Assembly: GCA_038131935.1 (NCBI GenBank)
Contig: JAYPQH010000032.1
Location: 128,001-192,000 of the forward strand
Origin: Alphaproteobacteria bacterium
Lineage (GTDB): Bacteria > Pseudomonadota > Alphaproteobacteria > UBA8317
Direction of reading: 5' to 3'
DNA: 64,000 nt
Shown here: one piece after another, positions 37,464-40,099 of the stretch
Numbering within the stretch: position 1 is the first letter of the stretch
Layout: every line of letters starts with the position of its first letter
Notes under the pieces: generated by a model
Told to the model about the DNA's origin: nothing
What the model saw: the letters and a program-made list of their open reading frames with translations, nothing else
The model's database searches: none
Position numbers and translations under genes: made by a program

Positions 37464-38174
37464 TTGAAAATAAGCAAAAAAGGTTGTGTTATTTTAGCCA
37501 TTGTCATGGTGACAGCCTTGCCATGGTTCATTTGCGCGTTCTCAATTGCTGGGCTGAGATTTTGGAACCCTGAGAAGACAATTTTACTTGCGACAGAACG
37601 AGAACATGCCGGTACAAAAGTTCATGAATGGGTTTCGATACAGAATGTATCTCCTAATGTGGTACAAGCTTTAATAGCCGCAGAAGACAATCGTTTTTGC
37701 GAGCATAGCGGTTTTGATTTTGCCCAAATTGCAGCAGCCTTTAATGATTGGTGGAATGGTGAAGAGCTTCGTGGTGCAAGCAGCATAAGTTCACAAGTGA
37801 TTAAAAATCTTTTTTTTCTTCCTGAGAGATCTTGGAACAGAAAATTTGTTGAATTTGTATTAACCCCGGTTCTTGAACTCACACAACGAAAAAGCAGGAT
37901 CATGGAAATTTATCTCAACATCATCCCGTTTGGTCCAGGCATTATCGGTATAGAAATGGCTGCTCAACAAATTTTTCATAAAACAGCATTTGAACTTACC
38001 ATGATGGAGTCGGCCGCGTTGGCAGCCGTACTCCCTAGCCCCTCCAAATTACCGCTTGATATTGCTTCACAGCGTGCAAAACAAATTCGCCGTGAGATGA
38101 ACAATATTGGGGCCATTGGCGCATGTGCTGGGGGATGGCACCATGTCAAAGATCTTCAAGCAACCGCACACTAA
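37464..38174 (+). CDS. mtgA: Monofunctional peptidoglycan transglycosylase
   Basis: AAEDNRF.EHSGFD, RGASSISSQVIKNLF, RKFVE, RIMEIYLN. Confidence 0.88.
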   Translation: MKISKKGCVILAIVMVTALPWFICAFSIAGLRFWNPEKTILLATEREHAGTKVHEWVSIQNVSPNVVQALIAAEDNRFCEHSGFDFAQIAAAFNDWWNGEELRGASSISSQVIKNLFFLPERSWNRKFVEFVLTPVLELTQRKSRIMEIYLNIIPFGPGIIGIEMAAQQIFHKTAFELTMMESAALAAVLPSPSKLPLDIASQRAKQIRREMNNIGAIGACAGGWHHVKDLQATAH

Positions 38175-39294
38175 GAGGGGGGAAACCATTAAACCCAACT
38201 GACGAATATGTGCTCGTGTAAGCCCCTGTTGCATAAATCCATAATTTATGACCCGCCGCCAAATTATCCGGTAAAGGCACGAGATTCTTTTCATACATCG
38301 TATCAACAGAGTCACAAGTAGGACCTGCGAGAATTACAGGCGACATCTCCCCCGTTACATCCACAGAAACAATTGGATAGCGAATGGCTTCATCTTCTGT
38401 TTCTGCCAGACCATGAAACTTTCCAACGTCTAGATAAACCCAGCGATGCGAGTCTACTTCACTTTTACGGGCAACCAAAACAACTTCACTGACAATAATA
38501 CCTGCGTCTCCCACCAACGCACGCCCGGGCTCGACGATCAAATTCATGCTACGCTTAGGAAAGCTATTTTCCATGAATTGCAACAAAGAATCCGCATATT
38601 TATCAACAGTGGGGCTTAAATCATCACCGAAATCTGTTGGAAAACCACCCCCTAAATTCAGAAGGTCCATGTGTATTCCATGTTTTTCTACTTCTGCAAA
38701 TATCCATGCAGCCTGCCAAATAGCTGTTTGCCACGGTGCCATATCAGTTTGCTGTGACCCCACATGAAAAGAGACACCCCTTGGCAGAAGCCCCAATTCA
38801 GCTGCAAGCAGTAAAAGGCTAATAGCCATATGGTCATCACATCCGAATTTTCTTGATAATGGCCAAGCCGCACCGGCACCATCCAAATTTGTCAAAATGC
38901 GACAAAATACTGATGATCCAGGGGCATGAACAGAGAGTTTCTGCAACTCCTCTTCTGCATCAAACGCAAATAACCTGACCCCACGTTCAAATGCATGGGC
39001 AATATCCGATGCTTTTTTAATTGTGCTACCAAAAGATATCCTGTCAGGTGCTGCCCCTGCTTTTAAGACCATATCAATTTCAGCAAGGGATGCGCAGTCA
39101 AAATTACAGCCCTCCTGTGCAAGAACATTCAAAATTTCTTCATGAGGGTTTGCTTTTACGGCATAATAAACAGCCATACCATCCATTTCCTCTGAAAATG
39201 TTCGGTAGTTATCTCGAACACGCTCCAGGTCAATAATCAAGCATGGTGTAGGCACGTTTTTATTCTTTAAAGCTTCTTCAATACGTTTCGTCAT
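38146..39294 (-). CDS. Fold-type III PLP ornithine/lysine decarboxylase
   Basis: YYAVKANP, FDCAS, LSRKFG, SFHVGSQ, EPGR, GPTCDS; AAGGGA SD before ATG 39294. Confidence 0.94.
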   Translation of the reverse strand: MTKRIEEALKNKNVPTPCLIIDLERVRDNYRTFSEEMDGMAVYYAVKANPHEEILNVLAQEGCNFDCASLAEIDMVLKAGAAPDRISFGSTIKKASDIAHAFERGVRLFAFDAEEELQKLSVHAPGSSVFCRILTNLDGAGAAWPLSRKFGCDDHMAISLLLLAAELGLLPRGVSFHVGSQQTDMAPWQTAIWQAAWIFAEVEKHGIHMDLLNLGGGFPTDFGDDLSPTVDKYADSLLQFMENSFPKRSMNLIVEPGRALVGDAGIIVSEVVLVARKSEVDSHRWVYLDVGKFHGLAETEDEAIRYPIVSVDVTGEMSPVILAGPTCDSVDTMYEKNLVPLPDNLAAGHKLWIYATGAYTSTYSSVGFNGFPPLSVRLLEDL

Positions 39295-39472
39295 GATATT
39301 TCCCTTCGATAAGGAAACATTGCCAGCGTGAAACGGAAACACCGCCCAACCTGATGCAATGATGTAGTTGCCTTCCAGAGCCAGACAAACTGGCAGTTCC
39401 AAAAAGCCCTCTACGTCGTTGCTTGCCGACTTCATCAAAAGTGAGGACGATGGGCACGCGCGTTCTGGGCAA
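39278..39472 (-). CDS. Putative leader peptide (uORF) of ornithine decarboxylase
   Basis: 64-codon TTG-start ORF containing VGKQRRRGLFG; overlaps the decarboxylase start by 17 nt; no SD visible. Confidence 0.4.
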   Translation of the reverse strand: MPRTRVPIVLTFDEVGKQRRRGLFGTASLSGSGRQLHHCIRLGGVSVSRWQCFLIEGKYHDETY

Positions 39473-39480
39473 GCAGCGTA
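39295..39480 (-). promoter_or_regulatory. speF-leader-like cis-regulatory region
   Basis: About 185 nt leader, more GC-rich than the adjacent AT-rich promoter region; position matches the alphaproteobacterial Rfam speF leader (recalled, not searched); hairpin 39299-39317 covers the SD. Confidence 0.6.
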
Positions 39481-39559
39481 CTAATGCATTTTTACAATAT
39501 TACAATGGAAATTATGTAACCAACCACCATATTACTAAGCAGGAAAAAGGAGTTTAAAA

Positions 39560-40099
39560 ATGAAACGATTGGTGATCGCGCTTCTTACCCTCATGCCATT
39601 TTTTTCAATAGCCCAACCCATTCAAAACACAACGGGAAAAGTTCTTTTTATTCGACACGCATTAGCGCCAGGGACTGGTGACCCAGCTAATTTTCGTATC
39701 GATAACTGTGCCACCCAAAGAAACCTCGACGATAGGGGCCGTGAGCAAGCTAGAGCTATTGGACGCCTCTTAAAAGAGCAAATCTTACAATTTCAAACAC
39801 CAATCTATTCCTCACAATGGTGTCGTTGTTTAGAAACCGCCAAATTAATGGATATGGGCGCTGTTGAGGCATTTCCCGGTTTGAATTCATTTTATACTCT
39901 ACCTGAATTCGAAGAAGAATATCTTAGAGAGTTAAAAAGGAAGCTGGCCCAACTTCCCTCTGATGGCGCTCTTGTGATTATGGTCACTCATCAAGTGACC
40001 ATCAGTGCCATCACCAACAAATATGTCAGATCAGGCGACGGTGTTTTGTACAATCCCAAAACACAAATTGCAGAGAGCTTTGCACTACCAAGCTATTAG
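39560..40099 (+). CDS. Exported histidine phosphatase family protein
   Basis: Signal peptide, IRHALAPG, QRNL, SSQWCRC.ETA, VTHQ. Confidence 0.88.
   Translation: MKRLVIALLTLMPFFSIAQPIQNTTGKVLFIRHALAPGTGDPANFRIDNCATQRNLDDRGREQARAIGRLLKEQILQFQTPIYSSQWCRCLETAKLMDMGAVEAFPGLNSFYTLPEFEEEYLRELKRKLAQLPSDGALVIMVTHQVTISAITNKYVRSGDGVLYNPKTQIAESFALPSY

Follow-up and report, generated by a model that had tools for sequence, protein, structure and literature searches.

What is known of the RNA leaders that precede ornithine decarboxylase genes in Alphaproteobacteria? The leader that Rfam holds as ar45 (RF02347) and speF (RF00518) has been without a known effector since 2005. Both parts were described as one "extended speF element" by Corbino et al. 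(2005), whose in-line probing turned up no ligand among six compounds. Del Val et al. (2012) separated the 5' 148 nucleotides (nt) as an Hfq-bound small RNA (sRNA), Smr45C/ar45, and a Bartonella study also sees ar45 as a separate RNA. The odc1 motif (uORF-25-1; uORF, upstream open reading frame) precedes the ornithine decarboxylase gene of Sphingomonas echinoides and of other Alphaproteobacteria (Brewer et al. 2021). Here we analyze the leader of an ornithine decarboxylase gene in a 64,000-nt stretch of DNA, hereafter the window (assembly GCA_038131935.1, contig JAYPQH010000032.1, positions 128,001 to 192,000), from an uncultured marine alphaproteobacterium whose lineage lies outside the Rhizobiales, unlike the Rhizobiales ar45/speF. 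This leader, 185 nt long and encoded, like all of its parts described below, on the minus strand (39295..39479), is in all likelihood a cis-acting structured RNA rather than a translated peptide—a compact, divergent form of the alphaproteobacterial ornithine decarboxylase leader (Rfam ar45 plus speF). It comprises an ar45-like 5' domain, a speF-like middle, and a hairpin around the Shine-Dalgarno (SD) sequence of the decarboxylase.

How does this locus compare with the extended speF element? Like that element, the window leader lies upstream of an ornithine decarboxylase gene, which is the synteny of ar45, and between 39470 and 39399 it carries the following ar45 features, which align with ar45-positive leaders: an outer helix GCCC/GGGC (P1), a U-run at the 3' end, and the blocks CGCACGUGCC and GCAACGACG. 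When the 5' domain is folded, the P1 5' strand GCCC (39467..39470) pairs with the 3' strand GGGC (39409-39406), the last two bases of which (within 39406..39409) are shared with a second helix, P5. P1 encloses two invariant blocks, CGYRCGUGCC and GCAACGACG. The former, CGCGCGUGCC in the window (39453..39462; consensus CGCACGUGCC), is made of invariant or near-invariant columns in 53 leaders, and its pairs with the core never vary; the latter, the core itself (39414..39422), is invariant in alignment A1 except for C or U at its second base. Between the two lies a variable inner hairpin (the CAUC...GAUG region, 39432..39452), in whose place relatives have other hairpins or long insertions. The U-run comes directly after P1: it is the pyrimidine run CUUUUUGG (39399..39406), which forms the 5' strand of P5, pairs with the purine run CUGGAAGG (P5 3' strand, 39371..39378) around a variable hairpin, P4 (GCCAG-UUUGU-CUGGC, 39380..39394), and corresponds to the 3' end of the Rhizobiales ar45 sRNAs.

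The speF-like part follows. As in the extended element, a hairpin after the U-run precedes a block GAAGAGGCA...UUGCC: where speF has its first hairpin and then ACUGAAGAGGCA..UUGCC, the window has, at 39394-39356, GCCAG/CUGGC and then CUGGAAGGCAACUACAUCAUUGC. This second block (GGCAACUACAUCAUUGC, 39356..39372) contains the speF hairpin GGCA...UGCC, one stem pair of which (GGCA/UGCC) is lost in the window, and an AUC (39363-39361) that is aligned with an AUG of relatives. The downstream blocks of speF (GUGCGG, a hairpin, UCCAA..AAGGCAG) find a loose, by-eye resemblance in GGGCGG-UGUUU-CCGU ... GCUGGCAA. Unlike the extended element, the window leader has no large insertion in its 5' domain, its part after UUGC is short and diverged, and Rfam does not report it; from the 5' block to the start codon it measures ~185 nt, compared with ~300-430 nt in Rfam-type leaders.

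Homologous leaders were found by BLAST in 2 of 40 related genomes, in both cases upstream of decarboxylase genes. In the first, of the same genus (G001), the leader is 75% alike over 73 nt, and a stretch of 21 letters, GGAAGGCAACUACAUCAUUGC (39376-39356, block 2 with its four preceding bases), is identical to that of the window; in the second, from another family (G039), 24 identical bases include the core. The G039 locus (L003) carries a match to Rfam ar45 (51.5 bits, 1417-1523) and, directly adjoining it, one to the speF leader (40.0 bits, 1532-1659). The window block AAGCAACGACGUAGAGGGCUUUUU is the 3' end of ar45 at that locus, and GAAGGCAACUACAUCAUUGC corresponds to its speF hairpin. A covariance model, R1, built from 44 nonredundant leaders of two non-speF kinds with the window and speF-type sequences left out, matches the window at 39358-39479 with 29.1 bits (E 4.9e-7; the next matches in the window have E 0.096 and 0.73). 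This is its single match in the window's 2.48-Mb assembly (E 1e-5), and R1 also matches six Rfam-type leaders at E <= 0.006. An initial annotation of the window, made from its letters and reading frames, had placed the leader with the alphaproteobacterial speF type; the shared ar45/speF blocks and the R1 match bear this out, though the Rfam speF model is silent. Judged from its sequence, the leader belongs with the orphan ar45/speF leader RNA, as a new and compact variant that the Rfam models do not cover.

Could the leader instead encode a regulatory peptide? The same annotation had drawn attention to a 64-codon open reading frame (ORF) that spans the leader and ends 17 nt inside the decarboxylase gene (39278..39472, minus strand; TTG start, 64 codons plus stop, MPRTRVPIVLTFDEVGKQRRRGLFG...). 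The frame exists as described, as do its three successive arginine codons, CGA CGT AGA, and the absence of an SD before the TTG (39472-39470), which falls at the extreme 5' edge of the conserved RNA. It was proposed that this ORF is translated, perhaps from a leaderless start, and that its arginine-rich nascent peptide stalls the ribosome on arginine, ornithine, or polyamines, opening the SD hairpin. The frame is indeed open in both the window and the same-genus relative, letters read as KQRR(R/C/S)G recur widely, and leader-peptide control of decarboxylase genes is known in Gammaproteobacteria as SpeFL. We nevertheless judge the ORF not to be a gene and the proposal to be extremely improbable. 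The window contains 140 ORFs of 64-149 codons (2.2 per kb), and the leader has three stop triplets compared with 4.8 ± 1.6 in shuffles; a 64-codon ORF is therefore not beyond chance. Pfam and NCBIfam searches returned no family for it.

The frame itself is lost between the conserved blocks. Fourteen speF-type leaders could be parsed (15 were tried; two of the 14 are near-identical Bartonella sequences), and in these the spacing of 5' block and core, taken modulo 3, is 0 in five, 1 in five, and 2 in four; for core and UUGC block it is 0 in six, 1 in four, and 2 in four. Read in the annotated frame, 4 of the 14 run into a stop ahead of block 2, and 4 of the 14 have no in-frame start. Even between the window and G001, the reading of the 5' block CGUGCCCAUCG shifts frame (..RVPIV.. 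and ..RAHR.., respectively). Around the core (read as (K)QRR in the annotated frame), the codons AAG CAA CGA CGU AGA GGG CUU UUU (KQRRRGLF) are letter-identical at all positions in the window, G001, and G039, with a G+C of the matched RNAs of 0.53 in the window vs. 0.64 in L003; the conserved codons show no synonymous variation despite large differences in G+C. The hairpins between the conserved blocks vary by compensatory substitutions. The window has CUUUUUGG...GCCAG-UUUGU-CUGGC...CUGGAAGG where G001 has CU.CCUG...CCGAA-AUGG-UUCGG...CGGG.AG, and despite the change in sequence both segments fold into the same two-tier hairpin; at the place of P4, the stem is CCGAA/UUCGG in G001 and CCGGC/GCCGG in G039.

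Given these in-frame stops, non-triplet indels, and compensatory hairpin changes, we reject the uORF as a translated peptide that senses arginine, ornithine, or polyamines; stops and indels of this kind in homologous leaders are what the initial annotation itself had said would refute its model. Neither a start with a ribosome-binding site nor a conserved frame and peptide, by which a regulatory leader peptide would be recognized, was found. As far as comparison among relatives can tell, the 64-codon frame is a by-product of conserved RNA sequence, not a regulatory peptide. SpeFL of Gammaproteobacteria is 34 codons long, and the decarboxylase of speF-potE is presumably of a different fold family from that of the window. 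The two systems are alike in having a regulatory leader before an ornithine decarboxylase gene, but SpeFL is a translated, ornithine-sensing arrest ORF with a conserved peptide, whereas the window frame is not conserved.

A shorter frame might be translated in place of the long one: a 9-codon AUG ORF, MFPYRREIS (39320-39291, minus strand), which spans the SD hairpin and ends in a UGA that shares bases with the AUG of the decarboxylase (AUGA); the frame of a UUG at 39359-39357; or one from AUC 39363-39361, whose phase is that of the gene. Between 39378 and the AUG of the decarboxylase, no stop interrupts any of the three reading frames (0 triplets vs. 2.25 expected; 4.4% of shuffles are as low), the frame of the gene is open for 48 codons upstream of its AUG, and the AUC is aligned with the AUG that opens an ORF in relatives. 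However, G001 has no peptide similar to that of any of these frames; in other speF-type leaders, gaps of 3-4 and 12-15 nt separate the blocks that follow UUGCC, so that no frame is kept; and Bartonella has CUC as the aligned codon. The 9-codon ORF lacks an SD, and it has no counterpart in G001. We consider translation of any of these frames very improbable. Two candidates in the relatives were also rejected. A UUG-started uORF at CAUUGCC in speF-type leaders looked codon-like in two of them; later spacings differ (3-4, 12-15 nt), and the segment is a covarying hairpin. A mini-ORF, AUG CAA CGA CGG AAG CGU CCU UUU UGA (MQRRKRPF), is seen in many relatives, where its "AUG" may also be AAG, UAG, UUG, ACG, or AGG, and its stop is lost in Stellaceae.

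How widespread is this leader? We examined 160 decarboxylase loci, namely the best 80 of 553 confirmed in genome contigs and the best 80 of 543 confirmed in metagenome contigs. The core G[CU]AACGACG lies upstream of the decarboxylase in 128 of the 160. Thirteen loci, several of them near-duplicates, are speF-like (Bartonella, Bradyrhizobiaceae, Pseudolabrys, and the sister lineage of the window). In 39 loci, an SD and AUG 50-80 nt after the core start the decarboxylase itself, with a conserved N-terminal extension (...LPAERGGLPPRIA...), and in 75 they open a separate ORF of 20-60 codons. The remaining loci comprise 1 with a false core, 21 without a core, 6 with too little upstream DNA, and 5 in which the gene marker was not found. 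Examples outside the Rhizobiales, with the core followed by SD and AUG, are L010:508-623, L030:346-576, and L038:443-686. Among 13 coreless loci whose upstream DNA was inspected, the decarboxylase directly follows another gene in 4, and in 9 Rfam matched nothing at E <= 0.1. The Rfam ar45 and speF models found 4 of 16 representative loci and neither model matched any of 14 further loci; across 151 genomes of the class, one per family, R1 matches 24 and Rfam speF 6. A literature search, with subscription journals outside its scope, returned no description of this wider family, its SD pairing, or its uORFs of 20-60 codons.

The window shares with the leaders from outside the Rhizobiales (Parvibaculum, Micropepsaceae, Stellaceae, Magnetospirillum, and others, for which there is no Rfam family) the same invariant 5' core and a helix of U-run and purine run around a hairpin. 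It differs from them in what the purine run does. In the relatives, this strand of P5 is the working SD, followed by AUG, of the decarboxylase itself or of a short uORF; the window purine run aligns with that SD but is followed by AUC, and the window decarboxylase has its own SD in a separate second hairpin, 60 nt beyond the aligned AUC. P1 is GACGC/GCGUC in these relatives vs. GCCC/GGGC in the window.

Do the short uORFs of the relatives look like genes? In one group they do. In Stellaceae-like uORFs (19 leaders), the synonymous share of codon differences is 0.336 in frame vs. 0.155 and 0.158 in the other frames, and third positions are the most variable (entropy 0.925 vs. 0.605 and 0.586). 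The Magnetospirillum-like uORFs (13 leaders) have a weak overall coding signal (0.188 vs. 0.157 and 0.131), with third-position changes at Ala, Asp, Val, and Thr in their conserved C terminus ...WALLWSDVRSTSRRI; a third group has none (0.214 vs. 0.218). The relatives' uORFs therefore appear to be coding in at least one group, with a clear signal in one group only. Their ends are kept within groups, for example ...WALLWSDVRSTSRRI, ...IEPSS.., ...ISTGANV, and ...GTIPSPLSNSI. Pfam and NCBIfam searches found no family covering them. The NCBIfam family RSP_7527 was considered for one relative's uORF and rejected: it scored 15.9 bits against a cut-off of 26, and in 301 genomes none of 15 loci of that family had the core and 5' block together or a nearby decarboxylase.

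The element is not confined to ornithine decarboxylase genes. Two R1 copies occur in 4 of the 24 matching genomes (G011, G056, G104, and G111), and the second copy in G011 (54.4 bits; L198:130-902) precedes a 10-codon ORF, MPMPDYYVRG, and an S-adenosylmethionine decarboxylase gene (AdoMet_dc 2.1e-35). It is because of this copy that we see the element as not restricted to ornithine decarboxylase; its position points to a polyamine-related signal rather than to ornithine alone. The second copies L199 and L201 and the best-match loci L187 and L192 precede genes of the Orn_Arg_deC family, without the gene marker motif in L187 and L192; another second copy, L200, could not be parsed.

What might the structure do? 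In minimum-energy folds of the 3' segment, the pyrimidine run pairs with the SD region in 43 of 44 non-speF leaders, compared with 36% of shuffles. When the same 44 leaders are folded at full length, run-SD pairing appears in 36 and P1 in none, because the P1 3' strand extends the SD helix (P5) instead. In silico only, the choice between P1 and an extended SD helix has the geometry of a switch. For the 44 leaders, RNAalifold predicts P1 (GACGC/GCGUC) as well as an inner helix between CGCACGUGCC and GCAACGACG. In A3, an alignment of 55 sequences, 98.8% of cells pair, compared with 95.6% in shuffles (0 of 500 reach 98.8%) and 13-69% with slid partners, and P1 has two-sided changes in three of five pairs (GACGC/GCGUC vs. 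GCCC/GGGC). The window retains the switch-like arrangement of the relatives: its P5/P4 fold, which has two bases in common with P1, has -17.7 kcal/mol (z -2.22; 2 of 200 shuffles as good), and this helix is found in the minimum-energy folds of the window, of G001, and of 4 of 5 Rfam-type leaders, whose sequences differ.

The SD of the window decarboxylase was described by the initial annotation as lying in a hairpin of TTTCCTT (39317-39311), loop ATCGA (39310-39306), and AGGGAAA (39305-39299), and so it does. Folding lengthens this stem to 10 bp (39320-39311 with 39305-39296; hairpin 39296..39320, minus strand, with the SD AGGGAAA at 39305-39299), with a folding energy of -8.7 kcal/mol (z -2.17; equaled in 5 of 200 dinucleotide shuffles), and in the whole-leader ensemble the seven bases of AGGGAAA have pairing probabilities of 0.87-1.0. 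When the whole leader is folded to minimum energy, UGCCCAG at its 5' end (39465-39472) pairs with CUGGCA (39320-39326) just before the SD hairpin, closing the leader.

A model in which a structured sensor domain gates initiation is suggested by the relatives and by the published ar45 ends. The 5' domain would sense a polyamine-related signal, be it a small molecule or a protein, and the formation or nonformation of P1 would alter how accessible the start region is. The window appears to have lost the start codon that follows P5 (AUC for AUG), and its local SD hairpin would limit output. Regulation may also act on transcription, through premature 3' ends at P1 and the U-run like those reported for ar45 sRNAs. 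We tentatively extend this model to the class as a whole, in a form that we hold as a possibility rather than an expectation: the ar45 domain would be the sensor of a class-wide orphan switch of polyamine synthesis, RNA sensor and leader peptide would together exert two-tier control, and the window would be a reduced form minus the start codon.

An alternative is that the 5' domain (~39470-39399) acts mainly as an independent, trans-acting, Hfq-bound sRNA like Smr45C/ar45 that ends at the U-run, with the decarboxylase mRNA made from its own promoter downstream, so that the two are not one switch. The P1 of the window is followed by UUUUU; del Val et al. (2012) detected Smr45C separately from the mRNA that contains speF and suggested that a second promoter exists, and the Bartonella study reports ar45 expression independent of speF. 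Yet the domain is always syntenic with polyamine-synthesis genes, the decarboxylase in all but one case, and in the 39 loci where the decarboxylase starts as close as 55-70 nt after the core there is no room for a separate gene and promoter. In the window, scans of 39100-39800 found no promoter-like site and no terminator, and one RNA-library contig runs unbroken from 38600 to 39487, although contigs cannot prove a single transcript. We therefore regard an independent sRNA as unlikely, and a single cis-acting leader as the better description.

The RNA-library contigs bear on this leader in other ways. In three runs from two studies, contigs extend from the decarboxylase gene and end at 39441, 39464, and 39487, a weak hint of a transcript that covers the leader. 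The stretch 39493-39539, uncovered in three runs, is no evidence of anything, because a contig of a fourth run bridges this spacer upstream of the leader. Among the contigs of the four runs (95-99% alike), zero base substitutions are listed in 39062-39538, a span that takes in the leader and 230 nt at the start of the gene, and the sole difference listed there is one inserted base behind 39488 in run X18; the flanking coding regions have many differences. The gene itself (38146..39294, minus strand) encodes 382 amino acids, starts at a single ATG (39294-39292, minus strand), and has an N terminus that aligns with its homologues; its protein matches Pfam Orn_Arg_deC_N (4.2e-58) and Orn_DAP_Arg_deC (2.8e-11). 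The divergent neighbor, from 39560, is a gene of the histidine-phosphatase family (Pfam His_Phos_1).

Several results weigh against the reading of the leader as a structured, gating RNA of the ar45/speF family. Some concern its membership: at gathering thresholds (ar45 40 bits, speF 37 bits), an Rfam search of the whole window has no match for the leader, and at E <= 10 one of 39100-39700 returns neither family, just an irrelevant 14-bit match. The cmsearch with the Rfam speF model that the initial annotation had called for thus stays below the gathering cut-off, and whole-genome searches with that model found nothing in the window's genome (G000) or in G001. On the closest relative (L004, in the sister genome, with a 30-nt insertion) R1 itself scores just 10.4 bits (E 0.38). 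Others concern the fold. Folding energies are unremarkable for the whole leader (z -1.27) and the 5' domain (z +0.41); the columns of the inner 5'-domain helix hardly vary and have no two-sided changes, which neither supports the helix by covariation nor contradicts it; and A3 was fitted to the R1 model structure. The initial annotation's claim that the hairpin buries the SD holds in silico, in that the SD does sit within a stable local hairpin; occlusion measured over -14..-5 does not go beyond shuffles (mean unpaired 0.35 vs. 0.47 in an 82-nt context; 11 of 40 shuffles as low), and among Rfam-type leaders the start region is occluded beyond shuffles in just 5 of 10. Constrained folding gave no link from the state of the 5' domain (P1/P5) to opening of the SD hairpin. 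We rejected a relay by which GGAAGG, the purine run, would pair with UUUCCUU, the anti-SD, once the U-run is unavailable: with the U-run, or the P1 3' strand and the U-run, blocked, the SD hairpin stayed intact and the downstream pairing probability was 0.0. As to the peptide, the sole independent close relative is of the same genus (G001), and the annotated frame is open there and in the window, which leaves its translation very improbable rather than refuted.

Finally, the odc1 motif is like the window leader in that it precedes an ornithine decarboxylase gene and has its ribosome-binding site as the right shoulder of a hairpin. The two differ in detail: odc1 has two UUG starts two bases apart, an 11-codon uORF, and a pseudoknot (Brewer et al. 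2021), whereas in the window the gene starts at one AUG and the hairpin loop measures 5 nt. With neither the paired UUG starts nor the 11-codon uORF, the window leader would not be classed as odc1. The published odc1 construct has a UCCAA...AAGGCAG stretch and then a U-run and an SD helix, resembling the speF 3' block (L003, L082, and L064). By this analogy, odc1 may be the last module of the same leader as speF.

What do these findings mean for the biology of the family? They correct a tempting leader-peptide annotation of the window ORF, and they indicate that the speF/ar45 leader, still an orphan, is the Rfam-visible part of a family whose true extent is several times that detected by the Rfam models. 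For most members, folding predicts direct pairing of an SD sequence with the U-run that follows the conserved domain, and the same domain also stands before an S-adenosylmethionine decarboxylase gene. Together, these features provide a concrete model for testing, in which P1 would compete with an extended SD helix in response to a polyamine-related signal, and cultured carriers exist in which this could be done.

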